The translations under genes and the position numbers were made by a program. Below the pieces are notes generated by a model that was given only the letters and a program-made list of their open reading frames with translations, was not told the DNA's origin and made no database searches. A stretch of DNA of 64,000 bases from assembly GCA_965226215.1 (NCBI GenBank), contig CBDDCH010000001.1:34761-98760 (forward strand), in the 5' to 3' direction. The stretch is from Bryobacterales bacterium. Its GTDB lineage: Bacteria > Acidobacteriota > Terriglobia > Bryobacterales > UBA6623. Shown piece by piece: positions 36,831-55,239 of this stretch; the stretch's first letter is position 1, and each line of letters begins with the position of its first letter.

Positions 36831-37097
36831 CAGCCGATGATTGATGGTGGTAAGGCGATATCCCGACAGGTATCCGCGGACGAGCCCTACGTAGTTCTTT
36901 CGGGGGACTTAGTCCTGTCCGCGGTGTTCGAACTCGGTGAACCAGTTTTGCATGACGCGAACGGTCTTGGAGCTTTCTTTAACCCGCTCCGCTAGAACAA
37001 AGCCTTCGCCGTCATGCGTGACATCGTACGTGAAGGTCGTGTCGGCGCGGTCGTGGGTGAAAGCACCTCGGAATAAAACCGAGCCCTTCAGACTCAA
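36831..37097 (-). pseudogene. 3' stub A of a Ser/Thr kinase-beta-propeller gene plus conserved downstream sequence
   Basis: YDVTHDGEGFVL...VRVMQNWFTEFEHRGQD*; DNA at 36845-36962 aligns with 44730-44848 and 48098-48216. Confidence 0.75.
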
Positions 37098-37311
37098 AAA
37101 GCGTCTTCTGGAAACCCACCGTCAGTGACGGCATCGTCGAAATGATGCCGGCGCCTATCACTACCGCATCAGCAGTTTTCCGCATGAGCAACTATCCTTG
37201 CGCCTCTTTACGCGAACGTGCATGCCGGTATACGATGGTCTACCGTTTACGACGTGAAACGAGTGACACAACCCTACGTGGCCTAGAGAACTCCAAGGCT
37301 GGAAGCCTATA

Positions 37312-39066
37312 ATGCCTGACGCTGAAACTGACCCGGTTTTGTTCGAGGTGATTCGAAACGCGCTGGTCGAGGCGGCGGAGGAAATGTCGGTCTCTTTGCG
37401 GAGGACCGCCTACTCCACGAATATCAAGACGCGCCTCGACTATTCCTGTGCCTTCGTTGACGCCGCGGGCCGCATGGTGGCGCAAGCTTTTTGCCAGCCG
37501 GCGCATCTCGTGACGACCGGACGCATTGTTCCCCGTGCCGTACGCGAGTATGGTCCCGAGAACCTCGAGTCCGGAGACGGACTACTGGTGAACGATCCCC
37601 ACCGCCAAGCCAGCCATTTGAACGACATCTTTCTCATCTCACCTTTTTTCCATGAAGGCAAGTTGATCGGCTACGTGGCGAACACCTGCCATCACGTCGA
37701 CGTAGGCGGCGGCGCTCCAGCCAGCATTGGAGTGTTTCGCGAGATCTATCAAGAGGGATTCATCCTCCCGGTTGTGAAGCTCCTCTCTCGCGGAGAAGTT
37801 GTAGAAGACGTCTTGAAAATGTTTCTGGCAAACGTACGGGCTGGCAAGGAAGTGGCCGGCGATCTGCGGGCACAGATCGCAGCTAACAGAATCGGCATTC
37901 GCCGGCTCGCCCAGCTTTTCGATCGTTACGGTGCCGAGACGCTTCGTCATTACGTCGACCGGCTTATCGACTACAGCGAGCAACGGCTTCGAGCAGAGAT
38001 TCGCGAACTGCCGCAAGGCACGTTCGAGGCCGAAGGCTACCTCGACGACGACGGCATCACGAGAGAGCCAGTCCATCTGAGAGCGAAGGTCACAATCGCG
38101 GGGGATCAGGCAACTTTTGACTTCACTGGAACGGACCCGCAGAGACCTGCGCCGATGAATTGCAATCTGACGCAGACCTTCACCGCCTGCGTGTTTGTGT
38201 TGAAGTGTCTGACGGACCCGGATATTCCGCTCAATGAGGGCTTCTACCAACCGATTCACGTCATTGCGCCCCAAGGTCTGGCGGTCAACCCGAGACCGCC
38301 GACGGCGATTGTGGGAGGTTGGGAAGTCTGCGCACGATTGTGTGAGGTCCTCTTCAAGGCTTTCTCAGCAGTTCTTCCGGAAAAGGTTCCGGCGGGGACC
38401 AAGGGGATGATCTGCCAGATCGGATTCGGCGGCCGCGACCCTCGTAGCGGCGAGTATTACTGCTTCTACGAGACGATGGCGGGAGGTTACGGCGGCCGGC
38501 ACTCATCCGACGGACCCGACGCCGTGCAGACGCACGTCCAGAACACGCAAAACGCCCCCGTGGAAGAGACCGAGCAGAACTACCCTGTGCGCATTATTCG
38601 GTACAGTCTCATCCCTGACTCCGAGGGCCCCGGACGGTTTCGCGGAGGGCTTGGCCTATGCCGCGAATACCAGTTTGTAGATCACGAACCCGTATTCACG
38701 ATCCTCGCTGACCGGGCTAAGTTCCCCCCCTGGGGATTGTTCGGGGGGGGGGATGGAAAGTGCGCTAGATACTCTCTGATCTCGGACGGCGGCGAGAAAG
38801 AGATTGGCTCGAAAACCAGTTTGACCGTCAGGAACGGTGAAAGGATTCGTATGGAGACTTGCGGTGGTGGCGGCTACGGGTCTGCTTGGGAGCGGGATCC
38901 GGAGCGTGTACTGCGGGATGTTCGGGAGGGCAAGGTCAGTGCCCATCGGGCGAGGAGTCGCTATGGGGTTGCGATCGACTCACGTTCAGGGACGATCGAC
39001 TTTGACGAGACAGACCGATTGCGGAGCCGACTTCGATGCAGTTCGATCCCATCCTCTTCGAAGTAA
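37312..39066 (+). CDS. Hydantoinase B / oxoprolinase family, paralog 1
   Basis: EEM...RRTAYSTNIK..LDYSCA, NDPH..SHLND, HHVDVGG, GPGRFRGG, GGGGYG. Confidence 0.93.
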   Translation: MPDAETDPVLFEVIRNALVEAAEEMSVSLRRTAYSTNIKTRLDYSCAFVDAAGRMVAQAFCQPAHLVTTGRIVPRAVREYGPENLESGDGLLVNDPHRQASHLNDIFLISPFFHEGKLIGYVANTCHHVDVGGGAPASIGVFREIYQEGFILPVVKLLSRGEVVEDVLKMFLANVRAGKEVAGDLRAQIAANRIGIRRLAQLFDRYGAETLRHYVDRLIDYSEQRLRAEIRELPQGTFEAEGYLDDDGITREPVHLRAKVTIAGDQATFDFTGTDPQRPAPMNCNLTQTFTACVFVLKCLTDPDIPLNEGFYQPIHVIAPQGLAVNPRPPTAIVGGWEVCARLCEVLFKAFSAVLPEKVPAGTKGMICQIGFGGRDPRSGEYYCFYETMAGGYGGRHSSDGPDAVQTHVQNTQNAPVEETEQNYPVRIIRYSLIPDSEGPGRFRGGLGLCREYQFVDHEPVFTILADRAKFPPWGLFGGGDGKCARYSLISDGGEKEIGSKTSLTVRNGERIRMETCGGGGYGSAWERDPERVLRDVREGKVSAHRARSRYGVAIDSRSGTIDFDETDRLRSRLRCSSIPSSSK

Positions 39067-40772
39067 TTCGTAATTCCTTGGTGGAGGCTACCGAGGAGAT
39101 GTCCGTGTGTCTGCAACGTACCGCATACTCCACGAATATCAAGACGCGCCTCGACTATTCCTGTGCCTTCGTCGACGCGCAGGGCCGCATGGTCGCCCAA
39201 GCGTTCTGCCAGCCGGCTCATCTAGTGACCATTGGTCGCATCGTTCCCCGGGCCGTGGCGGAATACGGGCCCGAAAACCTTGGGCCCGGTGACGGCCTCG
39301 TCGTTAACGATCCCCACCGCCAAGCCAGCCATTTGAACGACATCTTTCTCATCTCACCTTTTTTCCATGAAGGCAAGTTGATCGGCTACGTAGCGAACAC
39401 CTGCCACCATGTGGATGTCGGCGGAGGCGCTCCGGCGAGCATTGGGGCCTTCCAGGAAATTTACCAGGAAGGGGTCGTCCTTCCTGTCGTCAAGCTCCTC
39501 TCAGAAGGCTCGCTGGTTACAGACATATTCAAGATGCTCGTGGCCAACGTGCGGGCGAAGAAAGAGGTGGCGGGTGACTTACGGGCGCAGATTGCGGCCA
39601 ACGGGATCGGCATTCGAAGGCTGACTCACCTACTCGAACGCCACGGGACCAAGACGATCCGTTTCTACATCGACAGGCTGATCGAATACAGCGAGCAGCG
39701 GACTAGGGACCAGGTTCGCAAACTACCGGCGGGGAGTTTCGAGGCAGAAGGCTTTCTAGACGACGACGGAATTACAGACCGGCCTGTTCGTCTGAAGGCT
39801 CGAGTGACGGTGGACGACGGGCAGGTGACCTTCGACTTCACCGGCACCGACGCCCAAAGACCGGCGCCGATGAATTGCAACCTGACGCAGACGTTCACAG
39901 CTTGCGTCTACGTACTGAAGTGTCTCGTGGATTCGGACATTCCGCTCAATGAGGGCTTCTACCAACCGATTCACGTCATTGCGCCCCAAGGTTTGGCGGT
40001 CAACCCGAGACCGCCGACGGCGATTGTGGGAGGCTGGGAAGTCTGCGCACGATTGTGTGATGTCCTCTTCAAGGCTTTCTCAGCAGTTCTTCCGGAAAAG
40101 GTTCCGGCGGGGACCAAGGCGATGATCTGCCACGCCGGTTTCGGGGGCATCGATCCGCGGACCCATCAATACTACTGCTTCCTTGAGACCTTGGCCGGAG
40201 GTTATGGCGGCCGGATTCGCTCCGACGGACCCGACGCCGTGCAGACGCACGTCCAGAACACGCAAAACGCCCCCGTGGAAGAGACCGAACAGAACTACCC
40301 GGTCCGCATCACCCGCTACAGCTTGATACCGGATTCGGACGGCCCCGGCCGTTTTCGAGGAGGGTTGGGCCTATGCCGCGAATATCTGTTTGTAGATCAC
40401 GAACCCGTATTCACGATCCTCGCTGACCGGGTTAAGTTCCCCCCCTGGGGATTGTTCGGGGGGGGGGATGGAAAGTGCGCTAAATACTCTCTGATCTCGG
40501 ACGGCGGCGAGAAAGAGATTGGCTCGAAAACCAGTTTGACCGTCAGGAACGGTGAAAGGATTCGTATGGAGACTTGCGGTGGTGGCGGCTACGGCCCTGC
40601 TTGGGAGCGGGATCCGGAGCGTGTACTCCGGGATGTTCGGGAGGGCAAGGTCAGCCGGTCCAGGGCGAGAGAGTGCTACGGGGTCGCAATCGATCCGAAG
40701 CATCCAGTCATCGACCAAGAAGAAACGGAACGGCTTCGGTCGGCACTCGAGCGAGAGGCAACCGGGCGATGA
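39036..40772 (+). CDS. Hydantoinase B / oxoprolinase family, paralog 2
   Basis: Close paralog of 37312..39066. Confidence 0.93.
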   Translation: MQFDPILFEVIRNSLVEATEEMSVCLQRTAYSTNIKTRLDYSCAFVDAQGRMVAQAFCQPAHLVTIGRIVPRAVAEYGPENLGPGDGLVVNDPHRQASHLNDIFLISPFFHEGKLIGYVANTCHHVDVGGGAPASIGAFQEIYQEGVVLPVVKLLSEGSLVTDIFKMLVANVRAKKEVAGDLRAQIAANGIGIRRLTHLLERHGTKTIRFYIDRLIEYSEQRTRDQVRKLPAGSFEAEGFLDDDGITDRPVRLKARVTVDDGQVTFDFTGTDAQRPAPMNCNLTQTFTACVYVLKCLVDSDIPLNEGFYQPIHVIAPQGLAVNPRPPTAIVGGWEVCARLCDVLFKAFSAVLPEKVPAGTKAMICHAGFGGIDPRTHQYYCFLETLAGGYGGRIRSDGPDAVQTHVQNTQNAPVEETEQNYPVRITRYSLIPDSDGPGRFRGGLGLCREYLFVDHEPVFTILADRVKFPPWGLFGGGDGKCAKYSLISDGGEKEIGSKTSLTVRNGERIRMETCGGGGYGPAWERDPERVLRDVREGKVSRSRARECYGVAIDPKHPVIDQEETERLRSALEREATGR

Positions 40773-42871
40773 ATAACTCCTATCGGTTGGGAATCGACAT
40801 TGGCGGAACCTTCACGGATGCCGTGCTGGTGTCCGAGGAGACCGGCGAGGTACAGATCGCCAAGGTGCCGTCGACGCCGAAAGATCCGTCCATCGGCTTC
40901 CTAAACGCGCTGACGAGAATCTTGGAGAAAGCTGAACTGGAACCGGAAAGTGTTTCTTTTCTGGTGCACGGCACCACTGTCGCCACGAATTTGCTCATCG
41001 AAGGAAAGACCCCCAAGACGGCGTTCATCACCACCGCCGGTTTCGGGGACATGCTCGAAATCGCCCGTCAAGTTCGACCGTCGCTTTACGACGTGCATTT
41101 CGAGAAACCCCGGCCCCTGGTTCCTCGAAACCTCGCCTATGAAGTGTCCGAACGGCTGGATGCCCAGGGCAGCGTCCTGCTTGCGCTGGACCCGTCGAGC
41201 GTGGAGCGGATCGCGGAGGAACTCCAGAACGAGGAGGTCGCGTCGGTTGCGGTGTGCCTGCTCCACTCCTACAGCAATGCGGCCCACGAGCAGCAAGTTC
41301 GCGACATCCTGCTGAAGCAAAACCCCCACCTTACTGTTTCGCTCTCGTCGGACGTTCTGCCGGAGTTTCGCGAGTACTTCCGTGCCAGCACAACCGTCGT
41401 CAACGCCTGTTTGCGTCCCGTCGTCGAGTCCTATTTGACGGACCTTGCGACTCGACTGAAGACCCAACGTGTTCAGGCTGAGCTGCTCGTCATGCAGTCG
41501 AATGGAGGTGTGCTGACCTTCAAGACCGCGGCCGAAAAACCGGTCTACATGGTGGAGTCCGGGCCCGCGGCAGGGGTGATCGCGGCCAACTATGTCGCCG
41601 CAGCGGCCGGGCAGCGGGACTTGATTTCCCTCGACATGGGAGGAACGACCACCAAGGTGGGATTGGTTCTCGACGGTCAACCGAAGATCACTACGGAGTA
41701 TGAGCTGGGAACTGAGGCTGTGGCAGGGTTCGGGGAGTCGCGCGGCAGCGGATACCCGATTCGGACGCCGGTGATCGATCTGGTGGAGATCGGTGCGGGG
41801 GGCGGCAGTATCGCTTGGGTCGATTCGGGGAATATCCTTCGCGTAGGCCCGCAAAGCGCCGGTGCGGAGCCGGGGCCCATTTGCTACGGCCGGGGCGGCA
41901 GGGAGCCGACCCTCACTGACTCCAACCTGGTGCTCGGTCGCATCAACCCTCATTACTTTCTCGGCGGCGAGATGGAGCTGGACAGTGAAGCTGCGGCTGA
42001 AGGGGTCCGTGAGAAGTGTGGGAAACGGATGGGCTGGGACGCGGTCGCCGCCGCCAACGGCATCGTTGAAATCGCGAACGCCGCCATGATCAACGCCTTA
42101 CGGCTAGTTTCGGTGAGGCGAGGCTACGACCCTCGCGAGTTGGCGATGGTCGCTTTCGGCGGCGCGGCCCCGCTTCACGCCAATCGACTTGTGGCCGAGA
42201 TGCAGATCCCTCTTCTCATCATTCCTCCGAGCCCTGGCACTACGTCGGCTCTGGGGTTGCTGGTGACTGACCTGCGGCACGCATTCTCACACACTCGGGT
42301 AACCAAACTGGATCGCGCGGAGCCACCAGGGATCACGCGCTTGTTCGACGCTATGGAGGACGAGGGTCGGCAGACGCTCGCTCGCGATGGCGTTCCTAAC
42401 GAACGGATACACTTGCAGCGAGAGATCGAGGCACGCTACGTCGGCCAGTCCCATGAAGTGTCGGTAGCCTGCCCCGGTGGGGAACTCACCGCGGAGTCCC
42501 TCCGCGAGGTGGCGGCACGCTTTCACCAGGGACATGAGCAAGCCTATGGACACTCCTACTCGCAGGAAGAGGTCGAGCTGGTCACGTTTCGTGTCACGAC
42601 GATCGGGTCGATCGAGAAGCCGAAGCCTCGCGCGCTGGCGGATCGTGGGTTCAATCTGGAGCAGGCGCAGCGCGAAGTCCGTCCGGTTTTCTTTGCCGAA
42701 GAGAAGCGCTTCCAGCCAACGGCGATCTACGATCGCTATCGGCTGTCTCCCGGCCAGAGCTTCGAAGGTCCTGCGATTGTGGAGGAGATCGACTCCACCT
42801 CGCTGATCCACCCCGGCTTCCGGGCGGAGGTCGACCGATGCGGGAACCTGCTGGTGACTCCCCGATCTTGA
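40769..42871 (+). CDS. Hydantoinase A / oxoprolinase family ATP-binding subunit
   Basis: GIDIGGTFTD, HGTTVATN, ESGPAAG, DMGGTT, GAGGGSIA; ATGA overlap with the previous gene. Confidence 0.93.
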   Translation: MNNSYRLGIDIGGTFTDAVLVSEETGEVQIAKVPSTPKDPSIGFLNALTRILEKAELEPESVSFLVHGTTVATNLLIEGKTPKTAFITTAGFGDMLEIARQVRPSLYDVHFEKPRPLVPRNLAYEVSERLDAQGSVLLALDPSSVERIAEELQNEEVASVAVCLLHSYSNAAHEQQVRDILLKQNPHLTVSLSSDVLPEFREYFRASTTVVNACLRPVVESYLTDLATRLKTQRVQAELLVMQSNGGVLTFKTAAEKPVYMVESGPAAGVIAANYVAAAAGQRDLISLDMGGTTTKVGLVLDGQPKITTEYELGTEAVAGFGESRGSGYPIRTPVIDLVEIGAGGGSIAWVDSGNILRVGPQSAGAEPGPICYGRGGREPTLTDSNLVLGRINPHYFLGGEMELDSEAAAEGVREKCGKRMGWDAVAAANGIVEIANAAMINALRLVSVRRGYDPRELAMVAFGGAAPLHANRLVAEMQIPLLIIPPSPGTTSALGLLVTDLRHAFSHTRVTKLDRAEPPGITRLFDAMEDEGRQTLARDGVPNERIHLQREIEARYVGQSHEVSVACPGGELTAESLREVAARFHQGHEQAYGHSYSQEEVELVTFRVTTIGSIEKPKPRALADRGFNLEQAQREVRPVFFAEEKRFQPTAIYDRYRLSPGQSFEGPAIVEEIDSTSLIHPGFRAEVDRCGNLLVTPRS

Positions 42872-43026
42872 CGGACGCGGAGAAGAACGCCTTGGCGAAA
42901 CGGAACGAAGCCGACACAATGGACCGCATCCCGTTGCCTGGCTTCAATCCTTGGCTAGCTCTCGCTCTTCTCGTGATTGCCGGATTCCTCTACAACTGGT
43001 TGTGGGGTTTCATTCTGGGAGGGTAG
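42868..43026 (+). CDS. Small single-TM protein (possible symporter accessory subunit)
   Basis: TTGA overlap with the previous stop; one hydrophobic helix; lies directly before the symporter. Confidence 0.5.
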   Translation: MTDAEKNALAKRNEADTMDRIPLPGFNPWLALALLVIAGFLYNWLWGFILGG

Positions 43027-43031
43027 TTCGC

Positions 43032-44468
43032 TTGCACCCCATTCAACCATCCTGGTGGCTCATCCTGGTCTACCTGGTCTTGATGCTGGGGGTAGGTCTC
43101 TGGGGCCGAGGGAGGATCGCGACCACGGATGACATGGCCGTCGCCGGACGCCGCTCCGGCGTCTGGTTGATTGCCTTCTCCGTGGCGGCCACCTGGATCA
43201 ATGGCACCACCCTGATCGGTATTTCCGCCCTGGGGAGGGATTTCGGGCTGTGCGCTTACTGGGCGGGCGGCTCCTTTCTGTTGACCACGATCTGGATCGG
43301 GTTCTACATCATTCCTAGACTCCGCGAGACAGGCATCGTCACCATCCCAGAGCTGTTCGAGCGTTTCTTCGGTCCCAAGTACCGGTTGCTTTCCCTGTGT
43401 CTGGTTATTCTCCGGGACCTGGGGGTTACCGCCGGCACGATCGGAGCCCTAACGGTCGTTACGACCGGCTTGCTGGATATATCCGCGCTCGAAGCGCAGG
43501 CTCTGTGGCTCGGCGTGACGATTGTCTATGTCTTTCTGGGTGGCATGTGGGCCGTCTTGGTTACGGATGCGATCCAGTTCGTCATCATCATGGTCGCGAC
43601 TGTAGGCCTTCTGGCCGCGGGTTTCGCGCAGTTCGGCGGGGCGCGGGGCGTCGCTGCGCAAGTCGACCCGGAGATGCTGGGACTTCTCGGCAAAGCGGGA
43701 ATGGCTCAGGTCGCGGGGTGGGTCGTGATCGGGATCGCCGTCACGTGCGGGTACCAAGGGATCATACAACGGGGCCTCGCGGCTTCCAGTCCGGAAGTGG
43801 CACGGCGGGGCTTCCTCTACGGGGGGATCATCGGCACATTCTGGTACATGATTCCTCCTCTTCTTGGTGTGCTCGGTCAGGCGATGTACGGTGATGAAGT
43901 GAAAGCGGAAGACACGTTCGTGGAGGTGGCCTTTGGTGTTGCGGACGGGCAGTTGGCGACGATCGTTGTGGTCTGTGTTCTGGCGGCAAGCATGTCGACT
44001 TTGTCTTCGACCATCAACACAATGGCGTCCAACCTCACGATTGACATTTACAAACGATTCATGAACCCGCTGGCAAGCGTACGACGTCAGATCTGGGTCT
44101 ATCGGGTCAGCATTGTACTGGTGGGACTGCTGGCGACGGTCCTCTACTATGTCGTGCCGCTGCTGATCGAGTTGTTCTGGCTGGGAGGACGCATCATGGG
44201 GGCCTCCGTCGCTCCCGCTCTGGTCGCACTTGTTCTGTTCCCGAGCGTCAGACAAGCGCCAACGACAGTCCTGGCGGCAATGATCCTAGGTGCCACGACC
44301 GTAGCCTTATTGCAAATCTTTGGAGCCATTCAACAAATCGGGGCGGTCGTCATTGTCTGGCAGCTCGACCCAATACTGGTTGGCTTGCCGGTCGCGATTC
44401 TGATCCTCGCTTTGGGAACTCGGTACGAAACCAGATCCGGGAATCTGAGCAGCTGCGGGCCCCACTGA
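43032..44468 (+). CDS. Sodium:solute symporter (SSS) family protein
   Basis: D..VAGR, TIPELFERFF, YVFLGGMWAVLVTDAIQ, LAASMSTLSS...TIDIY; GGGAGG RBS before the TTG. Confidence 0.92.
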   Translation: MHPIQPSWWLILVYLVLMLGVGLWGRGRIATTDDMAVAGRRSGVWLIAFSVAATWINGTTLIGISALGRDFGLCAYWAGGSFLLTTIWIGFYIIPRLRETGIVTIPELFERFFGPKYRLLSLCLVILRDLGVTAGTIGALTVVTTGLLDISALEAQALWLGVTIVYVFLGGMWAVLVTDAIQFVIIMVATVGLLAAGFAQFGGARGVAAQVDPEMLGLLGKAGMAQVAGWVVIGIAVTCGYQGIIQRGLAASSPEVARRGFLYGGIIGTFWYMIPPLLGVLGQAMYGDEVKAEDTFVEVAFGVADGQLATIVVVCVLAASMSTLSSTINTMASNLTIDIYKRFMNPLASVRRQIWVYRVSIVLVGLLATVLYYVVPLLIELFWLGGRIMGASVAPALVALVLFPSVRQAPTTVLAAMILGATTVALLQIFGAIQQIGAVVIVWQLDPILVGLPVAILILALGTRYETRSGNLSSCGPH

Positions 44469-46044: not shown

Positions 46045-47729
46045 CGGTAAAGCACTCCTTTGGCTGTTGTTGTAGCGGACAGAACTGCCCCGAAGTTCAA
46101 GCCCTCCGCCTCGAAGGCCGCCGGCTGTTGGGTCGGGATGGAAACAAGAACGAGAAAACCGACGGACCGTGTTCGCGAGATCCGACTTGTCGGCATATTG
46201 GCCAGGATGTAATCGGGGACGTTAAAAAACGTAGTGTCCCGCCGCGTCACGCAAGCGAACACTCCGGAGAAATTGGTGGGGTAGTCAACGCTAATCCCCA
46301 AGATCAGCACCTGCGCGTTCGTGCTCGACCAGCTCAACCGCACTCCCTCGGAGCGGACCAAAGTATCGATCTGCTCGCGATTGGTCCACATGACGGGGCT
46401 GGCTACACCGATCGTCGATTCAAAAGCTCCAACATCGCCGCCGCCTGCCCCGGCTACCTGGACCTGCCCGGGCTCCAGAAACAGGGCGCGCGCTGGCGCC
46501 GAGGCTATGTTGACGTTGTGTCCGAGTACGGCCCCATAGAAGGACACGTTTGCAGAGAAATCCGTTGCCTGAATCGTCTGATCTGCGCTTGAGACGGAAA
46601 TCGCACCCGCGTCCAACGCGGGCGCCGGTGTAAAGGGAACGAAGGCGTCCTCCAGAATGTCCCCTTTGAAGTTGTAGGCGGTGCAGCTCCCCGGCGGCGG
46701 CCAGGAGATGTCGGGGTCGAATACAAAAGGTCCGCCGGGCTTATTGCTGAAGCCGGCGAGGAGTTGATCAACGATGATATCGACCGGCTTGGCCGGAACG
46801 GTCTGATCCGAAACTTCGTGCCGCACCAGAAGGAGCGAGCCCATCCTGGCGCCGCTCACAAAGGGTGCCGAAAAAGGGTTGTGCACGTCTGAGCAGGCCC
46901 CTCCGTCTCTGTCAACCGCCATCGTCACTGTGTTGCTGACCGCGACGCCGCCAACGCGAAGTTGCACGGGCGTGAAGCACCCGGCAGGAGCGTTCTCCGG
47001 CACGGGAACGTTGATCTGATCCACGCCGGAACAGCAGGGAGTGCGTCCGGCGTAAGTGATCCCTGTGGCTTGGACGCCGCCGATGAAAACCTCGACTTCA
47101 AACGGCAGTGTGCCCACGGGCGGCGCTTCATTGTCGGGAGCTTCAATTGGTCCTAAGCCAGTCAACCAAATTGTTACCAACTGCCCGGGTCTCGCCGTCA
47201 CCGTCGTGGAGTTAATAGGCTGTTCTATCGCCGAGACGAAGTTTTGCAGAACGCCCGGGCCGATCCCAAATTGGTTCACCGTGAAGATGCCCGGGGCGTG
47301 ATCGACGACGCGAACCGGCGACGGATTGCTTGTTTCCCCGTTGAAGGTAACCCGGATTGACACCCATCCCACCGGGGTGCTTGAGGGCATGATCGCATTG
47401 CTTTGTCCCGCCACGACGAACAAAGGAATCGCGTTCACGGTCACCTCGCCCTGCGTCACCGTGATCGAGACCCCGGCCAGTTCCTCGCCGAGGGGGAACG
47501 ACGACACCTGCACGCCGATCGCGGGGCCCAGGTCCCTTCCGAAGATCGTGAAAACCGAACCGCGCGCGATGGCGCCACCAGGAGCGCCAGGCGGTGTAAA
47601 GGCAGCCGAGTTCAGGATGCCCTGTGTAAAGATCAGCGGGGTCGCCGAGAGGATCGACCCGGTCAGGAGCACTAGACACAGCAGCCGCAAGGATCGCACC
47701 GAGTGAGTGTGCAAGACCCTGATTGACAT
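46041..47729 (-). CDS. Secreted protein with Solibacter-type TIGR03437/IPT-like domain
   Basis: Signal peptide; ILNSAAF..GAIARGSVFTIFG..LG, APGIFT, ARPGQLVTIWLTGLG, YAGRTPCCSGVDQIN. Confidence 0.8.
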   Translation of the reverse strand: MSIRVLHTHSVRSLRLLCLVLLTGSILSATPLIFTQGILNSAAFTPPGAPGGAIARGSVFTIFGRDLGPAIGVQVSSFPLGEELAGVSITVTQGEVTVNAIPLFVVAGQSNAIMPSSTPVGWVSIRVTFNGETSNPSPVRVVDHAPGIFTVNQFGIGPGVLQNFVSAIEQPINSTTVTARPGQLVTIWLTGLGPIEAPDNEAPPVGTLPFEVEVFIGGVQATGITYAGRTPCCSGVDQINVPVPENAPAGCFTPVQLRVGGVAVSNTVTMAVDRDGGACSDVHNPFSAPFVSGARMGSLLLVRHEVSDQTVPAKPVDIIVDQLLAGFSNKPGGPFVFDPDISWPPPGSCTAYNFKGDILEDAFVPFTPAPALDAGAISVSSADQTIQATDFSANVSFYGAVLGHNVNIASAPARALFLEPGQVQVAGAGGGDVGAFESTIGVASPVMWTNREQIDTLVRSEGVRLSWSSTNAQVLILGISVDYPTNFSGVFACVTRRDTTFFNVPDYILANMPTSRISRTRSVGFLVLVSIPTQQPAAFEAEGLNFGAVLSATTTAKGVLYR

Positions 47730-47747
47730 GGCGTATCAATCCGAGAG

Positions 47748-47951
47748 CTTGGGATGGTCGAGCGGGGCGGCGGCCTCGGCTTCGCGCGGGAACCGGGTCT
47801 AGTCCTCTTCATTCTCCAGCGCCTCTTTGGAGAGGAACTTGAGCGCGACGGTGCGTCGGAGTTTGAGATCCTCGGCCTTGTAGACCACACCCATCCCGCC
47901 TTCGCCGAGCTTTTCGGTGATCTTGTAGTGGCTGATGGTTTGGCCGATCAT
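47748..47951 (-). pseudogene. 5' stub of Ser/Thr protein kinase
   Basis: [40 protein letters not shown]...D*TRFPREAEAAAPLDHP, then an abrupt end about 20 bp before the next gene. Confidence 0.9.
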
Positions 47952-47961
47952 CGACGGCTCA

Positions 47962-47991
47962 ATTGTACCGCTGTGGGATAGATGGTGGTAA
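47962..47991 (-). promoter_or_regulatory. Putative promoter of kinase unit (TTACCA-N18-TACAAT), 10 nt before ATG
   Basis: Minus-strand TACAAT at 47962-47967. The same box and spacing are conserved at 54142-54147. Confidence 0.5.
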
Positions 47992-48097
47992 CAAGCCATC
48001 GCGCTAGCTATCCGATTCAAGGCCATGGTAACTCAATAGAACGAGGGGTTTTCAGCTCTTCCGACGACGTGGAAAAGGGCGTCTAACGGGCGTTTGT

Positions 48098-48225
48098 TGG
48101 TGGTAACGCGATTAATCAACAGTTATCGGCCCACAGGCGCTATCTAGTTCGTTTCAGGAGACTTAGTCCTACCCGCGGTCGCGGAACTCTTCGTACCAAT
48201 TTTAGACCACCCGGATCTTCGGTAT
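48098..48225 (-). pseudogene. 3' stub C of kinase gene plus conserved downstream sequence
   Basis: PKIRVV*NWYEEFRDRG*D* (two nonsense changes) followed by the shared tail. Confidence 0.8.
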
Positions 48226-48240: not shown

Positions 48241-49323
48241 TCACGGGCCGGCGATCGCTATGCTCGACGTATCCCCTTCCATCTCGCTGGGCATGCGGAT
48301 TGTAAGCGGAACCTGATCACCTGCCTGCGCCTCCAAAGGTACCCGGGCGTTAATCTGATACAACCCCGAAAAGCTGGGCGCCAACCCGGAGAAATCAACT
48401 CTCGCCTGGATTCCTCCGATCGTCACCTCGGGCGTCTCAACCGTGTTGTACCCGCCAGGGGCTAGCATTCCCGTCGGCAAGGGATCGCCCGCCGGGTCGC
48501 CACCCGGTGTGGCCTTGCCCAGACCGGTAACGAAGATCTGTAGTATCACGCCCGGAGACACCGGCTCCCCGCAATCGGCTAAAGGAGCCACCCCGCCCGC
48601 CTTGCAGTTCGTCGGGATGCCCAGCGTGGCCGCTGTCGAAGCGGGAATGGCCAGATGCCTGGTTGGCCCACGATTCGGGACGTCGGGGTCGAAGGCAACC
48701 AAAGCCGCCGCGTAAATGCGGCCCACCGGGTCGGCGCGATAAATACCCGTGCTCGCCGGCGCCATCGCCAGCATGAACACATCGCTGGTTCCCGCCGAAT
48801 TCGTGACCTCCACTTGAACCTGGTCCATCTCGGGCAGATCGGTCGGCGCCAGGACGTTGATCTGAGGGAAGGGAGTCGCTCCAAACACGCCAAACAGCGG
48901 CGCGGCCGTGCCGTCAAACAGGACCGATATTCCCTCCGCCTCGAATTGAGTGGAAGGGAACAGAAAGTCCTGATTGATCATGCCGAAGTCCTGGCCGAAA
49001 ACGGCCAGGATGGAACCAGGCGCCGCCGGTGCGTTGGCGAGAAAACTGGCGCTGCTAACGATGCCTCCGACGGTCGGTGAGACGGCCGGTGACACCGTAA
49101 CCTGTCGCCGCAACAGGTTGCCTGAGGCGTCGTAGGTGTAGTTGATCGCACTTCCTCCACCATAGTCGGCGGCGATCAACCGGCCGGCCTCGTCGTAGCG
49201 GTACTGGACGGTGGTCTGGGCCGACAGGCAACTTGCCGCGAGAAGGAACAGGCAGCATTTCCAAAGTTCGTTCATCGCTCTCTTCGTTACGTCTTCATCG
49301 CTTCGTGCCGGTTCGTCATTCAT
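48241..49323 (-). CDS. Secreted protein: short YD/RHS repeat fused to TIGR03437-type domain
   Basis: Signal peptide; YRYDEAGRL...YTYDASGNL; then VSSASF..APGSILAVFG, LQIFVTGLG, SGLAPSFSGLYQIN. Alternative start at 49275. Confidence 0.8.
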   Translation of the reverse strand: MNDEPARSDEDVTKRAMNELWKCCLFLLAASCLSAQTTVQYRYDEAGRLIAADYGGGSAINYTYDASGNLLRRQVTVSPAVSPTVGGIVSSASFLANAPAAPGSILAVFGQDFGMINQDFLFPSTQFEAEGISVLFDGTAAPLFGVFGATPFPQINVLAPTDLPEMDQVQVEVTNSAGTSDVFMLAMAPASTGIYRADPVGRIYAAALVAFDPDVPNRGPTRHLAIPASTAATLGIPTNCKAGGVAPLADCGEPVSPGVILQIFVTGLGKATPGGDPAGDPLPTGMLAPGGYNTVETPEVTIGGIQARVDFSGLAPSFSGLYQINARVPLEAQAGDQVPLTIRMPSEMEGDTSSIAIAGP

Positions 49324-52300
49324 CAAGGGCAGGTTGCGAAGGCTTGTGTGTCCGTGATGGCCGGAAAAGAGCTGCCGAGTGGATCGCCATAGGTCTTTGT
49401 CGCTCCAGTCGCCGTGTCGGTCACTCGCAAGGTGTATTCAACGTTCGTGGTCGCCGCGTCGAACACCCAGAAGTTTCCAAAGGCGTTTGTGCCGTTCACA
49501 CCGTCAAGGACTTTGATCAAGAACTCCATGTTGTCAGAGCTAAAGAAGAAAAAGTCGCCCGTGTCGGCCAGTCCCACATCGTCGCAGAGGTTGGAACCCC
49601 CGATGATGTCATTTCCGGGATCGCCAAACACTAAGCCCGTCGAGTTTACGTTGTCCACGGTTATGTACCCCCGGGCAATCGTGCCGGCCGGTACCCCCCC
49701 GGTATTGGGAACGGCTGCGACGCTTCCCGGCGAATCGTCCCGTCGAGTGGTGTCCGGGGGTTTGGGGTCCGTCGCATCCCGCCAGACACTCAGGCGCGTT
49801 CCTCCGTCGAACGCTCCTCCGTTCAGGTAGCGTGCTGCCCAGGTGGTTCCCAGGGGTTCGCGGTTATCCTGGCCGTTCGGTGAACCGCCCGGCTGGACGT
49901 AGCGTCCGTAAAAGGTATAGCCGGTAGGGTTACTGCTGTTGACGCCGCCGAGGTTTGGGTTTAGGTTGCCGAGACCCCAGGGAGCGTTAGCTTCGATCCT
50001 GACGAGATTATCGCCCTCTGCGAAGTTTGTGGCGGAATCCACTATAAACCAATCGCCCCACAACTGGTTTACGTTGGATGCTATGCCCGGCCCTGTACCC
50101 ACGCCGTCCGTGAAAAATGGGTTCAGGCCCGAGGGATCGGCGAACCGCAGAGGTTGGTTGAAGGCGAACTGATACGGATTTACTCCGAGCGGGTCCAAAA
50201 GTAGAACCGGATCGCGGCTCAAGAACCGTGCGGTGGCGGCGTCGTAGTACCTTCGGCGCATGTTGTAGAGCGTGGTTCCGGGTTCCCACATCACGCCGAA
50301 CGCACCATGATAGACAAAGGGCTGATCGGAGCCGCCCTGATGCCGCACCTCTTCGCCAAAGGGTGTCACCGCGTAGGCGTCCGTCATCGCACCGCTTGCG
50401 CCGGTAAGCATCATCGTCGAGCCAACTTGGTCGAAGTGATAGAACCTGGGGCTGTTGTCGGCAGACTCGATGCTGTAAAGCAGCATACCGTTTGGTTCAT
50501 AGACGTAGTAACGTTGGTCGGCGCCCGCGGACCGAACGATGGAGACGGTAGGCAGAGCGTGTGCGTGATTCAGCACATAGGTTTCGCTGCCGCTGGCGGT
50601 CGTCCGAGAAATACGGTTCCCAAGCCCGTCGTAGGTGAACTCGGCGGAGCCGTCTTGGCCGTTGTAGCCCGTCAGCGTCGAGTTGCCGTCCCAGCGATAC
50701 TGTCGCAGCCGGTCGGCCAGCAGCCGGCCAAGATCATCGTAGGTCGCATTCTCCACCTGATGCGCGGTGTCGTAGGAGAGGGGCAGCATGCCCGGCGCGG
50801 GCTGCGTTTGGAGCGGTGCGTCAACCGTAGCTGAAGTGATCTGCCCGTCGTCATCCCGCTCGAGGGTAATCTCCGCCGAGACGTTCATTCCTGTATGGCG
50901 GATGCCGGTTACCTGGTCGTTTTCGTTGTAGGTCAAATCGGTGCTAACGCCGTTGGGACGCTCGATGCGGGTCCTCCGGTCGGCCGCGTCGTAGATGAAC
51001 CGCGTTACACCTCCGGTCCAGTCCGAGAGCTGGGTGAGCCGCCCCCTCATGTCGTATTCGTAGGTCACCTGTTTGCCCGGCGAGTAGGTGATATTCGAGA
51101 TGCGCCCGGCGGAGTCGTACTCGATGAGGATGCCGTTCGAGTCAATGATGCGGCTCTCGGCGTCGCGGCGCAGGGTCAGCCCGGCCGTCGCCAGGAGCTT
51201 ATTGTTCTCGTCATGGGTGTAGTCGTAAGTCGTTCCGTCGAAGAACTGGTTGCGGGTTATTTGGCCGACGGCGTCGAAGGTGCGCCGCGTCAATCCCAGC
51301 GGCGTTTGGATCTCGTGCCGCCTCCCACGTTGGTCATAGTCGTAGCTAATGGTTCGCCCGAGAGGATCGGTCAAGGAAGTTTGCCGCCCGCCGCCGTCAT
51401 ATGCGCGCAGCCATTGGTTGCCATTCGGGTCTGTCAGGGTACTCAGTTCGCCGAGACCATTGAACTGGTATCCGGTGATGATTCCGGCGGCGTCAACCTG
51501 CGAGAGATTCCCGCGCGCGTCATAGCGAAACGCTCGCGACCGGCCGGTGGCGCTCCGTGTTGAAGTCATGCGGCCGACCGCGTCGTAGGTGTAGTTAATC
51601 GTTTGCCCGCCCGGGGCTGTGAGACCCGTCACCCTTCCCGCCGCGTCGTGGACCAAGGAGCCGGTCTTGCCAAGAGCATCTGTAACGGACGTGAGCCTTC
51701 CATTGGCGTCGTAGCCATAATCGACCGAAGTTCCCAAGTCGTCGGTGACGGAGGTCAGCAGATTGCGTCCGTCGTAGGTAAAGCGAACGGCCTCGCCGGC
51801 TCCGTTTCGCACTTCGGACACGTTGCCCACGGGGTCGTACTGAACTGCGCGGGTGTCGCCTGTGCGGTCGGTGAAGCTCGCCAGGCGGCTATTCCCGTCA
51901 TAGTTAAAGCGGCGAGAGTTGCCGAGCGGGTCCGTCATCGTGCGGATCCGGTTGTTATCGTCGTATTCGATTTGTACTGCGTGACCCAGTTCATTGGTCA
52001 CCCCCACGATGTTGTCCGACTCGTCGACTTCGAGGCCGCGCTCGGAGCCATCCCCATTCCGAATCGTGCTGATCCTCTTTAGGAGATCGTAGGAGAAGTT
52101 TCGCGCGACCCCGCCGGCGTCAATCGCTTCCGCCAACGAGCCGTCGGCATTGGGGGTGTACCGGCCTGTTCCGCCGAGCGGGTTGGTCAGGGTTAACAAC
52201 TGTCCTCGCTCGTCGTAGGTGAAGGTCCAGTCATCGCCCGCGCGGTCGGTGAACCTCGTCAAGTTGCCTAGGGCGTCGTACTCGTACTGCTCGGTGGCAG

Positions 52301-53495
52301 CGTCGGGAAAGGTGAGCCGAGCAGGAACGTAGGCGCGAAAGCCGTCCTGGTCCTGTTGCTGGTATTCCATGGTCCAGGTGGCTCCGGAAAAGTCGGTTAC
52401 GCTGGCCGGGAAACCGGAGGGATTGTGATACGTGAAAAGCGCCTGGCTTCCCATGCGGTCGGTGTAGGCGACGATGCGATTGTTCCCATCGTAGGCGGAG
52501 GCATCGGTATTGCCGGCGCTATCGGTTGAACCCGAGAAGTTCTCACCGCCGGAGTGGGTGTAGCCGCTGACTTGGCCTAAGGGGTCGAGCACCGTCGTGC
52601 CTTCGCCGTCAGGGGGCTGATCGTATTCGAATGTCGTGACATTGCCCTCGCCATCGGTCTGGGTACCGACACGCCCGTCACCGTCGAAGGTTTGGGTGTT
52701 GAGCCTGCTGCCGTCGGGTAGGGTCGACGTTGTCATCAGCCCCTCGAGGTCTCCCTGGGCCGTGTAAGAGTAGGTTGTCGTCGCTCCCTTTGCATCGGTG
52801 AAGGTGGTCAGGTTGTCCCCGGTGTATCCGAACTGCACTCCGCGGCCGGTTTGATCCTCGACACGAGTCAGCTTGCCGCCGGTGTAGGTGAACGCGAGCG
52901 AGCGGCCGAGTCCGTCGGTGACCGTGTCGGGACTGTTGGCGCCCTGGGTTACGGTCAGCGCGTTGCCGTTGCGATCCTCGATCCGTGTCAGGCGGCCCAT
53001 GGCGTCGAAGGTGTAGATGCGGGTTGTGGAAAGATCCAGAAAGCGGAGCCCACCCCCGTCGGCGTCCTGCAACTGATGATCAAGTTTTTCCGTGCTCGAC
53101 AGCGCCCAGTCACCGCCGTCCCGCTGGAAGGGGGTGGTTTTGCCGCCGAAGAGGTTGACGGTTGCCGTGTCCCCATCGACGGCCACGGAGAAATCGAAGT
53201 TGTGAGTCCAGTTGTTGCCGAGAGTCCCGGTGAAACCTCTGGCCGTCAAATAAGCCGCGTAATACCGGCCAAACGTCAGCGCGAGCGGGCCGCCCAAGAA
53301 CAGGTCCGGCCGGAGGATGTTCGGGTCATGCACCTCGCCCGTGGCGAGAGAGACGGGGTCTCCGAAGGGCTGCGGGTTGTCCGCTGCCGCGTTGGTCAGC
53401 TTCAGGAGCTGTCCTATTACGGTGAAATCGAAGCGCGCTACGTTACTGCCGGCACAGCTTGAGCTCGTGGCGGTTATAGCCCAATTGACAGTCAC
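49323..53495 (-). CDS. RHS repeat-associated core protein (DUF6531-like + YD repeats + core + 266-aa tip)
   Basis: GDPVSLATGE, LG.NWTHNF, many YD repeats, FYHFDQVGS, RRYYD...RFLSRDP...NQPLRFADPSGL. Probably continuous with 53492..53911 across a frameshift. Confidence 0.9.
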   Translation of the reverse strand: MTVNWAITATSSSCAGSNVARFDFTVIGQLLKLTNAAADNPQPFGDPVSLATGEVHDPNILRPDLFLGGPLALTFGRYYAAYLTARGFTGTLGNNWTHNFDFSVAVDGDTATVNLFGGKTTPFQRDGGDWALSSTEKLDHQLQDADGGGLRFLDLSTTRIYTFDAMGRLTRIEDRNGNALTVTQGANSPDTVTDGLGRSLAFTYTGGKLTRVEDQTGRGVQFGYTGDNLTTFTDAKGATTTYSYTAQGDLEGLMTTSTLPDGSRLNTQTFDGDGRVGTQTDGEGNVTTFEYDQPPDGEGTTVLDPLGQVSGYTHSGGENFSGSTDSAGNTDASAYDGNNRIVAYTDRMGSQALFTYHNPSGFPASVTDFSGATWTMEYQQQDQDGFRAYVPARLTFPDAATEQYEYDALGNLTRFTDRAGDDWTFTYDERGQLLTLTNPLGGTGRYTPNADGSLAEAIDAGGVARNFSYDLLKRISTIRNGDGSERGLEVDESDNIVGVTNELGHAVQIEYDDNNRIRTMTDPLGNSRRFNYDGNSRLASFTDRTGDTRAVQYDPVGNVSEVRNGAGEAVRFTYDGRNLLTSVTDDLGTSVDYGYDANGRLTSVTDALGKTGSLVHDAAGRVTGLTAPGGQTINYTYDAVGRMTSTRSATGRSRAFRYDARGNLSQVDAAGIITGYQFNGLGELSTLTDPNGNQWLRAYDGGGRQTSLTDPLGRTISYDYDQRGRRHEIQTPLGLTRRTFDAVGQITRNQFFDGTTYDYTHDENNKLLATAGLTLRRDAESRIIDSNGILIEYDSAGRISNITYSPGKQVTYEYDMRGRLTQLSDWTGGVTRFIYDAADRRTRIERPNGVSTDLTYNENDQVTGIRHTGMNVSAEITLERDDDGQITSATVDAPLQTQPAPGMLPLSYDTAHQVENATYDDLGRLLADRLRQYRWDGNSTLTGYNGQDGSAEFTYDGLGNRISRTTASGSETYVLNHAHALPTVSIVRSAGADQRYYVYEPNGMLLYSIESADNSPRFYHFDQVGSTMMLTGASGAMTDAYAVTPFGEEVRHQGGSDQPFVYHGAFGVMWEPGTTLYNMRRRYYDAATARFLSRDPVLLLDPLGVNPYQFAFNQPLRFADPSGLNPFFTDGVGTGPGIASNVNQLWGDWFIVDSATNFAEGDNLVRIEANAPWGLGNLNPNLGGVNSSNPTGYTFYGRYVQPGGSPNGQDNREPLGTTWAARYLNGGAFDGGTRLSVWRDATDPKPPDTTRRDDSPGSVAAVPNTGGVPAGTIARGYITVDNVNSTGLVFGDPGNDIIGGSNLCDDVGLADTGDFFFFSSDNMEFLIKVLDGVNGTNAFGNFWVFDAATTNVEYTLRVTDTATGATKTYGDPLGSSFPAITDTQAFATCP

Positions 53496-53911
53496 CCGGG
53501 CGGTCCCGGGCCTGACGGGTTTGACGATGACATCTGCGTGATCCGCCCCGGGGCGGTGTACGGGATCGTGCGTGCGCTTCCGAGGCCGCCGCCCTGCTGT
53601 TCGATGCCCACGGCGCTACCCTGCACCGTAGCGGTCACCGTGGTGGTGCAGTTCATCTCACTGCCATCGTTCATGACACGAATTGTTATCTGCGAGCCGG
53701 ACAGGTTCACCGGTACCGTGGCGCCCGCAGGCACTTCCGTCGAATTGTTCTGTTCGTCGATGACGAAGAACTGGTGGGCTTGGGCGCCGGTCGCTCCGAC
53801 CACGAGCAGCAGGACGACCACGCACATCCATCGGGCGAACCGGTTCGGACGCGCCCTAGATAGAGGATGCGCTTCCGACGCGAGTTCGTGTTTCGCTAGA
53901 CCAAACATCAC
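53492..53911 (-). CDS. Probable N-terminal part (signal peptide + Ig-like strands) of the RHS protein, separated by a frameshift near 53550
   Basis: Signal peptide ...VVGATGAQA. The RHS frame reads DHADVIVKPVRPGTARVTVNW upstream of 53495, beginning at a CCCCGGGG run. Confidence 0.6.
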   Translation of the reverse strand: MMFGLAKHELASEAHPLSRARPNRFARWMCVVVLLLVVGATGAQAHQFFVIDEQNNSTEVPAGATVPVNLSGSQITIRVMNDGSEMNCTTTVTATVQGSAVGIEQQGGGLGSARTIPYTAPGRITQMSSSNPSGPGPPG

Positions 53912-54115
53912 CTTCCACCAGAACTCCGGACTCTGATGCGGAGAATGTTCTCCAGCTCGACTGTCGCGCTCATTCTATTGTCTGCCACGACTGACCTCCG
54001 GATCAGCATATGTTGGGACCGTGAGTATAGCGAAAACTCTCGAGGTGTCGTCCTACTTAAACTAATGACAATCTCCTTGCGCGTCAAACCGAGGTCGCCC
54101 CGTCAACATCCAAGA

Positions 54116-54192
54116 ATGGTTTGCCGACCATCGACGAGAAAATTGTACCGCCGCAGGATTACTGTCGGGAACAAGCCAACCCACCAGTAATC
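54116..54192 (-). repeat. Second, degenerate kinase 5' stub with promoter
   Basis: ATGGTTTGCCGACCATCGACGAGAAAATTGTACCGC...AACAAGCCA aligns with ATGGTTTGGCCGATCATCGACGGCTCAATTGTACCGC...AACAAGCCA at 47935-48012. Confidence 0.75.
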
Positions 54193-54258
54193 TGCCGGCG
54201 ACATTCCTTCCTGGAAAGATTCTAGCTTGGGCAGGCGGCAAAAGGAGGCCGCTTGCCC

Positions 54259-55239
54259 ATGAATCAACCGACTCAGCGACGTACCCGTCGCAGGAGAAAA
54301 TCCCCAACCTTGCCCGAACTCGAACAGGCAAAGGCTGCCGTCCTCAATAGCCTCGGGTCTCTGCAGTCTCGCCGGTCATACGGCCGTGCGATGAAGGAAT
54401 TCATCACCTGGTATTGCTCGGAGCCTCGACTGGCGCTGAACCGCTCCGTCGTCCTACGCTACCGCATGCGACTTGAAAACATGCGTCTCGCAGCAGCTAC
54501 CATCAATGTTCGCCTAGCTGCCGTTCGGCGTCTCGCTACCGAAGCCGCCGACAGCGGGCTGCTAAGTCCGGACCTCATCGCCGGCATTCGACGAGTCCGC
54601 GGTGTCAAACAGCTGGGTCGCCGCATCGGAAACTGGCTCACCCCAGAAGAGGGGCAGCGTTTGCTCAGTGCTGTGCCAACCGACCGTCTTCGGGGCAAGA
54701 GGGACGCCGCGATGCTCGGGTTGTTGATCGGGTGCGGACTGCGGCGCTCGGAACTGGTCGAACTCAACGTCGATCAGATCCAACAGCGAGAGGGACACTG
54801 GGTGATCATCGATCTGATCGGCAAGGGTGGCCGCTTGCGCACCGTCCCCATGCCGGGTTGGGTCAAAGACGCTGTAGACGATTGGGTTTGCTCGGCGGAG
54901 ATCACGGGAGGCCGGCTGTTCCGCGCGGTCCGCAAAAATGGTGTGCTGTGGGGCCACGGGTTAACGCAGAATGTGGTCTGGTACGTCGTCAAGGAGTGCG
55001 CCAAGCGAGCTGGGATCCAAAATCTGGCGCCCCATGATCTGCGAAGGAGCTGCGCTCGCCTGTGCCATGAATCGGGAGGGGAGTTGGAGCAGATCCAATT
55101 CCTGCTCGGTCACGCCTCCGTACTAACGACGGAACGTTACATCGGCTGCAAGCAACGGCTCAGCTGTGCGGTGAATGACCGGATCACGTTGCGTGCTGAG
55201 AACTCTCCCGACTCCGAACCATCTGAGTTCACCGGCTAG
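54259..55239 (+). CDS. Tyrosine recombinase (XerC/D-like fold), intact
   Basis: GLRRSEL, GKGGR, PHDLRR, LLGH, TTERY catalytic set; AGGAGG RBS. Confidence 0.92.
   Translation: MNQPTQRRTRRRRKSPTLPELEQAKAAVLNSLGSLQSRRSYGRAMKEFITWYCSEPRLALNRSVVLRYRMRLENMRLAAATINVRLAAVRRLATEAADSGLLSPDLIAGIRRVRGVKQLGRRIGNWLTPEEGQRLLSAVPTDRLRGKRDAAMLGLLIGCGLRRSELVELNVDQIQQREGHWVIIDLIGKGGRLRTVPMPGWVKDAVDDWVCSAEITGGRLFRAVRKNGVLWGHGLTQNVVWYVVKECAKRAGIQNLAPHDLRRSCARLCHESGGELEQIQFLLGHASVLTTERYIGCKQRLSCAVNDRITLRAENSPDSEPSEFTG

Follow-up and report, generated by a model that had tools for sequence, protein, structure and literature searches.

A probable decayed tandem array of Ser/Thr kinase genes, whose conserved ends frame unrelated genes, in a Bryobacterales genome

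In a 64,000-nucleotide stretch of DNA from a Bryobacterales bacterium (the window; the 5.6-Mb genome it belongs to is G000 below), positions 36,831 to 55,239 hold an array in which short repeated gene ends, here called stubs, bracket unrelated genes beside an intact tyrosine recombinase gene. The initial annotation of this DNA proposed that the recombinase runs an undescribed integron-like cassette system, and it named a decayed tandem kinase array that had become an insertion hotspot as the alternative. We find that the alternative is favored by remnants of variable length, kinase genes split by insertion sequences (IS), and a genome that retains no intact family member. From these results we conclude that the region probably has an ordinary cause, the decay of tandemly arranged kinase genes within accessory DNA together with capture of old promoters by new genes.

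The window contains three 3′ stubs and two 5′ stubs, all on the minus strand. The 3′ stubs have in common a coding end, ...NW[YF]EEF..[DQ] and the stop codon, together with about 65 nt past the stop, and they align nearly without gaps. A repeat search of the window aligned 44724-44848 with 48092-48216 at 80% identity over 125 nt, found three copies each of a 62-nt block (at 36845, 44730, and 48098; 85% and 68% identical to the reference) and of a 52-nt block (at 36898, 44784, and 48152; 75% identity each), and aligned the 5′ stubs 47940-48012 and 54120-54192 at 71% identity over 73 nt. When a profile of the three 3′ copies was run against the 5.6-Mb genome with nhmmer, the window copies were recovered at E values of 1.4e-39, 6e-39, and 9.1e-36. 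The stub positions of the initial annotation are thus borne out by repeat search, alignments, and nhmmer (E 1e-36 to 1e-40), as is its near gap-free 3′ alignment that runs into about 65 non-coding nt.

Read along the minus strand, the array begins with 5′ unit 1 (54065..54195; nhmmer E 8.9e-28 and junction alignment), which consists of an upstream element, a −10 box, and about 6 kinase codons and which lies head-to-head with the Xer-like tyrosine recombinase gene on the plus strand (54253..55239; PF00589, 1.7e-25). An inverted-repeat search marks an imperfect palindrome in the upstream element of this unit (54149-54169 / 54180-54200). Frame 1 cargo follows (48241..53911, minus) with a 139-aa open reading frame (ORF), a 1390-aa RHS protein (49323-53495, minus), and a 361-aa YD-repeat/Soli_cterm ORF (48241-49326, minus), supported by Pfam RHS_repeat (1.7e-85) and DUF6531. 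It is closed by 3′ stub C (48083..48225, minus; nhmmer E 6e-39 and translation), which keeps the last ~17 codons, with in-frame stops, and the conserved spacer. A linker (48016..48097, minus) then leads to 5′ unit 2 (47724..48015, minus; nhmmer E 2.6e-44, promoter scan, and tblastn to query residues 1-76), with an upstream element, a promoter, and 76 kinase codons interrupted by two stops. Frame 2 cargo (44866..47729, minus) is co-oriented with that promoter, shows no kinase or PD40 homology, and encodes a 562-aa Soli_cterm protein (46041-47729, minus; NCBIfam TIGR03437, 1.7e-40), previously labeled TIG, and a YVTN beta-propeller (44866-46044, minus; NCBIfam TIGR02276, 1.2e-49). After 3′ stub B (44715..44860, minus; nhmmer E 1.4e-39 and alignments), with the last ~17-21 codons and the conserved spacer, comes cargo on the opposite strand (37312..44468, plus): two hydantoinase B genes (PF02538, 6.9e-186 and 1e-178), a hydantoinase A gene (PF01968/PF05378/PF19278), and an SSF symporter gene (PF00474). 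The last remnant is 3′ stub A (36831..37031, minus; nhmmer E 9.1e-36), the last ~44 kinase-PD40 codons plus the conserved spacer, which tblastn matches to residues 879-922 of an intact 922-aa relative. The gene content is therefore as first described, and two of the stub descriptions need adjusting. Stub A had been drawn to 37097; it is present, and its recognizable part ends at 37031, with a conserved unit at 36831-36960 and then a PD40 remnant. Both 5′ stubs are real, and the kinase codons that they keep are unequal, about 6 in the first and 76 in the second. Within the 361-aa ORF, about 850 bp (48209-49089) are 89-92% identical to two other places in the genome (C2:1358013-1358857 and C2:735287-736157) and have copies in G005 and G006, at an identity that far exceeds the between-species similarity of the neighboring genes.

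By homology, the two stub types are the two ends of one gene family, which encodes a Ser/Thr kinase, a transmembrane segment, and PD40 propellers; the 5′ stub corresponds to the kinase N terminus and the 3′ stub to the C terminus of the PD40 part. An intact gene of 922 aa in a relative (G015) has both ends: it starts M.DRTISHYKI..., carries the Pkinase and PD40 domains (PF00069 and PF07676), ends in ...NWYEEFRDREQN before its stop (also written ...IRVVMNWYEEFRDREQN), and is followed by the same tail. In tblastn comparisons with this protein, the 5′ stub covers residues 1-76 and the 3′ stub residues 879-922, and positions 1-65 of Pkinase match window 47730-47927, a segment with one TGA and one TAG. 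In family f1, 19 of the 24 other genomes have the 3′ unit, tail included, each in tens of copies, and it was found in none of 16 genomes of the sister families f2 and f3. Large divergent groups of Ser/Thr kinase paralogs are described for a Solibacter genome (PMC3174227), and neither the literature listings nor the passages of that paper mention conserved gene ends or kinase-framed cargo.

The non-coding half of the 3′ unit can be traced in large part to the same family. A promoter scan places TTACCA-18-TACAAT at 47991-47962 in 5′ unit 2, and an element of ~40 nt lies directly upstream of this promoter in the 5′ units. The distal half of the 3′ tail aligns with that element, and the 5′-unit profile matches the 3′ tails at about +37. 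The distal half is thus a second copy of the upstream element, with which the control region of the following gene would begin. This would explain why conservation past the stop equals that of the coding part, and most of the conserved bases there would accordingly be intergenic control sequence of a tandem gene family. The elements flank each family gene in direct orientation. We also carried out a census of 3′ ends over the 66 best-matching loci of relatives, a sample biased toward stub-like matches. In 23 of these 66 loci, the promoter unit of a next kinase gene lies ~150-170 nt past the stop, and the family is therefore often tandem; this spacing in relatives is the same for long genes and for stubs. 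Two spacer continuations recur. The class I tail, which follows stub A in the window (36736..36859, minus), stands after six of ten 3′ units in G000 and alone at ~8 other sites, and in relatives it follows long genes as well as stubs. The class II continuation is the linker at 48016..48097, which joins a 3′ unit to the promoter of the next gene as the normal spacer of the tandem array and recurs after 3 of the 10 G000 units. Both classes are found behind long genes and stubs alike in the census. The kinase promoters also carry an operator-like palindrome around −35, GATAGCT-N22-AGCTATC or variants of the type GATTACTG...CAGTAATC, which suggests a common regulator. As a covarying hairpin, the −35 palindrome did not hold up (mean best perfect arm 4.95 nt, against 4.35 in shuffles) and is not relied on here; 5 of 21 5′ units have palindrome arms of 6 or more.

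The family has decayed throughout G000. Ten full 3′ units and one partial unit are present, and none of them ends an intact gene. Searching the genome with the intact protein (tblastn), we found no intact member, only N-terminal pieces of about 6, 26, 39, 54 (three copies), 58, 76, 79, and ~180 aa, several internal pieces, and C-terminal pieces of 12 to ~187 aa. Within the genus, full-length members are present in G001, G002, G003, and G006 and not in G000, G004, and G005. IS copies interrupt several G000 kinase genes; one example is the pair C2:2997153-2997371 and C2:2995305-2995856, which flanks a copy of an ISL3-family element. The 5′ breakpoints vary, with about 6, 18, 12/20, 32, and 76 codons kept, and so do the 3′ breakpoints: in the census, 17 ends are long (homology to the locus edge, at least 495 aa), 6 have 100-303 aa, 17 have 24-83 aa, and 26 have ≤23 codons, so that 49 of the 66 are truncated. 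These lengths form a continuum skewed toward short pieces with no fixed breakpoint, as repeated deletion would give. The coding part of the 3′ stubs carries frameshifts and stops. Four stub clusters exist in G000 (the window, C2:247-267 kb, C2:3.442-3.446 Mb, and C2:3.613-3.618 Mb), and each looks like a former tandem array; their interiors are now taken up by, among others, an RHS operon, genes for an MFS protein, a response regulator, and a glucose/sorbosone dehydrogenase, and an unknown 531-aa gene accompanied by IS elements.

The array lies in DNA that is specific to this strain. Synteny with the same genus stops near window 23,500 and resumes near 57,430, and in the ~34 kb between these ends, same-genus matches are IS copies, copies of miniature inverted-repeat transposable elements (MITEs), and paralogs only. 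This stretch contains the array, a broken integrase gene by a tRNA-Arg gene, an ISL3 element, other repeats, and further gene fragments. No counterpart of the array was found in six same-genus genomes. In G002, G003, and G004, the left and right syntenic flanks are on different contigs or about 2 Mb apart, and therefore no empty site can be defined. The ISL3-family element (29870-31190; transposase 29894-31126) has more than 40 copies at ~100% identity in G000 and 99% identical copies in G002, G004, and G005, a sign of a recent IS burst. The strain-specific stretch has at its left edge tRNA-Arg(TCT) (23663-23739), directly beside a broken Phage_integrase gene (~23906-24409, with a TGA). A search rightward within the window found no repeat of the tRNA region of 14 nt or more, and the tRNA 3′ end faces the syntenic side; an island integrated at the tRNA was rejected on these two grounds.

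The genes inside the frames are not oriented at random with respect to the promoters. In all eight truncated 5′ units that keep a −10 (five in G000 and three beside recombinase homologues), a co-oriented ORF follows, and in seven of the eight, the gene is supported by a family (RHS twice, Soli_cterm twice, PMT_2, PQQ_2, and FAD_binding_2). Of 52 truncated 3′ stubs, 49 have an open frame in the 300 nt upstream; 29 of these frames point the same way as the stub and 20 the other way, and there is no orientation bias. The 8/8 co-orientation does not fit plain decay, and we read it as survival of promoters in use; the bias is a count, and transcription from the stub promoters is what it would imply. 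The RHS operon is 83-85% identical in G011 and G020, where its copies have no kinase 5′ unit upstream, and it is absent from three same-genus genomes. This operon and the recombinase have a patchy distribution that appears typical of horizontally moving DNA.

Taken together, these results argue for the following history. The original state would have been a row of paralogous genes, in tandem, for membrane Ser/Thr kinases that carry PD40 beta-propellers. Of its remnants, each 5′ stub would be the conserved control region (the ~40-nt element and TTACCA-18-TACAAT) with the first 6-76 codons, and each 3′ stub the last 12-44 codons with the family's conserved intergenic spacer. The family was presumably lost inside the strain-specific stretch by IS insertion, deletion, and replacement of gene interiors with horizontally acquired DNA, and promoter-bearing stubs may have been kept where they could drive a co-oriented gene.

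We then compared the array with integrons, which have an integrase (IntI) with a specific additional domain, an attI site, a Pc promoter, and attC-bounded cassettes that are mostly promoterless single ORFs; attC sites, which lie at the cassette ends, are imperfect inverted repeats able to form hairpins as single strands. Integron cassettes also vary in order or content from strain to strain and have circular intermediates. The likeness is a tyrosine recombinase gene that lies head-to-head with a promoter reading into co-oriented repeat-bounded units. However, the recombinase is not an IntI. It scores 125.3 bits against the XerD model (cutoff 329.6) and 117.8 against the XerC model (cutoff 335.15), against 59.9 for the integron integrase model TIGR02249 integrase_gron (cutoff 265) and 36.1 for PRK15417 (cutoff 435), so that the Xer models outscore the integron models and the equivalog cutoffs of XerC/XerD, the chromosome-dimer resolvases, are not reached. 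Its best solved relatives are XerC-like 4a8e and XerD 1a0p, and among structures, IntI4 is matched at 1.3e-7 and the XerC-like protein at 2.7e-16. We therefore regard it as a generic Xer-like enzyme, far below IntI thresholds; better PF00589 matches exist elsewhere in the genome. The repeats, in turn, are gene ends without hairpins: single-stranded DNA folds of the three stubs on both strands gave z scores of +0.14 to +1.36 (of 200 shuffles, 114-183 folded equally well or better), and attC-like hairpins were rejected. The units differ further from cassettes in having their own promoters (frame 2 has TTACCA-18-TACAAT), 2-4 genes, in one case on the opposite strand, and variable inner breakpoints. 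The initial annotation had itself reported that it saw no attC folds and no IntI-specific insertion, and both observations hold, the first in single-stranded and consensus folds alike; it had also named variable breakpoints as evidence against its proposal, and the breakpoints vary at both ends. The proposed cassette system thus finds no support in the IntI models, the folds, or the breakpoints. In four sequencing runs from four studies, unit interiors are present at about 99.7-100% identity, and the contigs end at the stubs, where depth climbs about 15-20-fold. The runs were available as contigs, a form unable to show rare circles, and the listed joints (e.g. 36868 to 44787) have other letters between their sides or sides of only 20-45 nt; we read them as other repeat copies and not as excision.

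Several observations weigh against plain decay of the array. The last ~10 codons and the first ~30 nt past the stop are ~90% conserved at the nucleotide level, synonymous sites included, in 67 copies from six genera; the promoter-upstream copy accounts for the distal half of the tail only. Ends of truncated units are about as conserved as ends of long genes (0.91 vs 0.94 in the coding block, p = 0.1; 0.88 vs 0.87 in the proximal tail), a weak comparison because the loci were picked as best stub matches and the consensus is dominated by stubs. The only two G000 loci that match the N-terminal query of the window RHS protein, 42-46% identical to each other, are both in kinase frames. The remaining points concern the recombinase. 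In all five recombinase loci outside G022, which come from four genera, the shared upstream stretch passes at one and the same base into a copy of the spacer element; two recent duplications of the recombinase block (G007 and G022) end inside or at the edge of the element; and the frame beside the homologues holds a kinase (G008), an RHS operon (G000), PQQ_2 (G007:C12), Soli_cterm (G022), or FAD_binding_2 (G007:C7), five different contents counted over four genomes. Three other readings, which partly overlap with each other and with the decayed array, draw on these facts.

The first is exchange by homologous recombination, in which the conserved ends serve as homology arms and "end-cargo-end" DNA replaces what lies between the ends in any family member, in the manner of locus switching at capsule or O-antigen loci. 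We consider this unlikely. It agrees with the 80-94% identity of the ends across loci that have unrelated contents or contents only 42% identical, with duplication blocks that end in conserved elements, and with the patchiness of cargo, recombinase, and RHS, which have copies 83-88% identical in other genera and none in three same-genus genomes. However, frame 1 offers a 5′ arm of only about 130 nt and the arms are 70-90% identical, which makes a poor substrate, and no frame shared between genomes was found. Furthermore, the RHS copies of g6 (G011/G020) are outside frames, and therefore a first capture would need illegitimate recombination. The likeness to capsule and O-antigen loci is one of conserved ends around variable, horizontally exchanged contents; here, in contrast, the flanks occur in many copies, are short at about 130 nt, and come from a single broken gene, and no cargo shared between genomes was found.

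The second reading, which we consider about as unlikely as homologous exchange, gives the array-resident recombinase the active role. The ~40-nt element would be its target site, and element-to-element units, natively kinase genes and otherwise gutted frames with RHS, Soli_cterm, PQQ-like, or other cargo, would be excised, inserted, and reshuffled in a chromosomal cassette platform unrelated to integrons. The initial annotation was right that the adjacency of recombinase and stub is not accidental, since it recurs in close homologues of four genera. Copies 77-88% identical are present in G007, G008, G018, and G022 and absent from three same-genus genomes, and the conserved block among these loci is the gene alone, ~1.0-1.17 kb. 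The recombinase thus appears to be a resident of kinase arrays in several genera that abuts one copy of the spacer element. Beyond the identical junction in five of five loci, both G022 copies have an element about 250-330 nt away (within about 330 nt), direct-orientation elements flank each gene, the two duplication blocks end in or at the element, and different genes stand in the frame next to the recombinase. In addition, G000 and G007:C7 are without the "tail element plus linker" that G008, G018, and G007:C12 have, as recombination between elements would give. At G007:C7, a 2.5-kb insertion (L045 9747-11824) that encodes a 291-aa tyrosine recombinase and a 401-aa IS91-type Y2 transposase sits between the recombinase homologue and the kinase 5′ unit, and a 94% identical second copy is in L043.

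Nevertheless, we found no evidence that the recombinase moves the units. The boundaries of the cargo vary and are not at the element, so that replacement of interiors needs another process anyway; no frame is seen in two places; and between neighboring units stand two elements and a conserved linker instead of one hybrid site. The element has no clear core of the 11-6-11 type, and its palindrome does not exceed that of shuffles (4.95 vs 4.35). Stubs and recombinase also do not track each other: a search of genomes for the two features found 9 that contain both, 7 with stubs alone, 2 with the recombinase alone, and 3 that lack both. In G000, a homologue is in one of four stub clusters, that of the window, and 7 of the 10 full 3′ stubs are in clusters without one. 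Of distant homologues (49-53% identical, 8 loci), none has a 5′ unit, and one has a partial 3′-unit match at the locus edge. The junction facts keep the recombinase-target reading alive, yet they are also expected from one ancestral insertion into the spacer, from which a shared junction could be inherited, and homologous exchange in conserved sequence. Among known systems, the nearest are Xer-dependent dif/pdif modules and the Xer-like recombinases of small mobile elements, with XerC/XerD as the nearest named or solved relatives and a short repeated element that is abutted; here, however, the protein is far below the XerC/XerD cutoffs, no 11-6-11 dif-like core is recognized, and the conserved block is the gene alone.

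The least probable of the three readings, that the 3′ unit is a cis-acting element (a protein-binding site, an unusual terminator, or a 3′-end RNA signal) selected after gene loss, has in its favor that six genera share the last ~10 codons and ~30 nt with ~90% conservation, the excess of short stubs over intact ends (49 of 66 sampled units truncated, 26 to ≤23 codons), and stubs no more diverged than intact ends, but it has against it the frameshifts and stops in the stub coding part, a sample biased toward stub-like matches, the existence in the genus of intact genes able to spawn fresh stubs, and the lack of a consensus structure, an Rfam match, or a terminator-like site. The RNAalifold consensus of 67 copies has 5 pairs at −1.6 kcal/mol with no covariation; the one Rfam match above gathering thresholds in the window is a tRNA, and 36500-37200 and 47600-48300 gave nothing at E of 1 or less; and the promoter/terminator scan found no terminator-like site in the 3′ units. 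On the fold and these Rfam results, a structured RNA in the 3′ unit was rejected.

A decayed array thus accounts best for the region, and its closest parallels are decaying paralog arrays and insertion hotspots of IS-rich accessory regions (regions of genome plasticity), which it resembles in the strain-specific stretch, the IS and MITE copies, the fragments of many lengths, the IS-split genes, and the patchy cargo. It differs from them in that its remnants are strikingly regular because the family ends are nucleotide-conserved, and in that promoter-bearing remnants lead into co-oriented genes in 8/8 cases. Rhs and polymorphic-toxin loci with displaced orphan modules offer a further parallel, with RHS operons in the cargo and short conserved gene ends left as "orphans"; here, however, the orphans are ends of kinase genes and wholly conserved sequence, not a conserved junction with a variable tip.

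Other repeats and fragments are spread over the window. MITE-like repeats at 60431-60609 (~180 nt) and 22858-23059 (~200 nt) have dozens to hundreds of copies in G000 and the genus, and a ~275-nt element (34862-35154) with 58-nt terminal inverted repeats has copies at 97-99% identity in G006 and G002 and at 93-98% in G003 and G001. A ~1.03-kb repeat (24972-26004), 99% identical to three places on C2 of G000 and two in G001, is probably a mobile element; Pfam gives no family for the 348-aa ORF beside it (26013-27059). The two copies of a 73-nt direct repeat (84%), at 27126 and 32222, enclose ~5 kb including the ISL3 copy. Just beyond the recombinase gene, 55339-55647 retains only the first ~70 residues of an FAD-dependent oxygenase (PF01494), another gene fragment, of which 207 nt are 93% identical to a stretch in G008 and 91% to one in G001. 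Outside the strain-specific stretch, 6679-7103 contains an exact 123-nt direct repeat, 302 nt apart, and 18705-20810 contains three ~212-nt repeats spaced 947 nt and 65-75% identical. Sponge-metagenome runs contain about a third of the sampled words, and we draw no conclusion on habitat from this.

Two points deserve note beyond this locus, the conservation of the last ~10 codons with ~30 nt and the recurrent junction between recombinase and element in four genera. If the recombinase does act on the element, this would be a new way to build and remodel gene arrays, and the cassette platform would be unusual in that each cassette brings its own promoter. As it stands, the region is an instructive case of decay in a large paralog family whose ends are nucleotide-conserved: these ends survive the genes and mimic cassette boundaries, and old promoters come to stand ahead of newly acquired genes, which is a warning for scans of repeat-bounded gene arrays.

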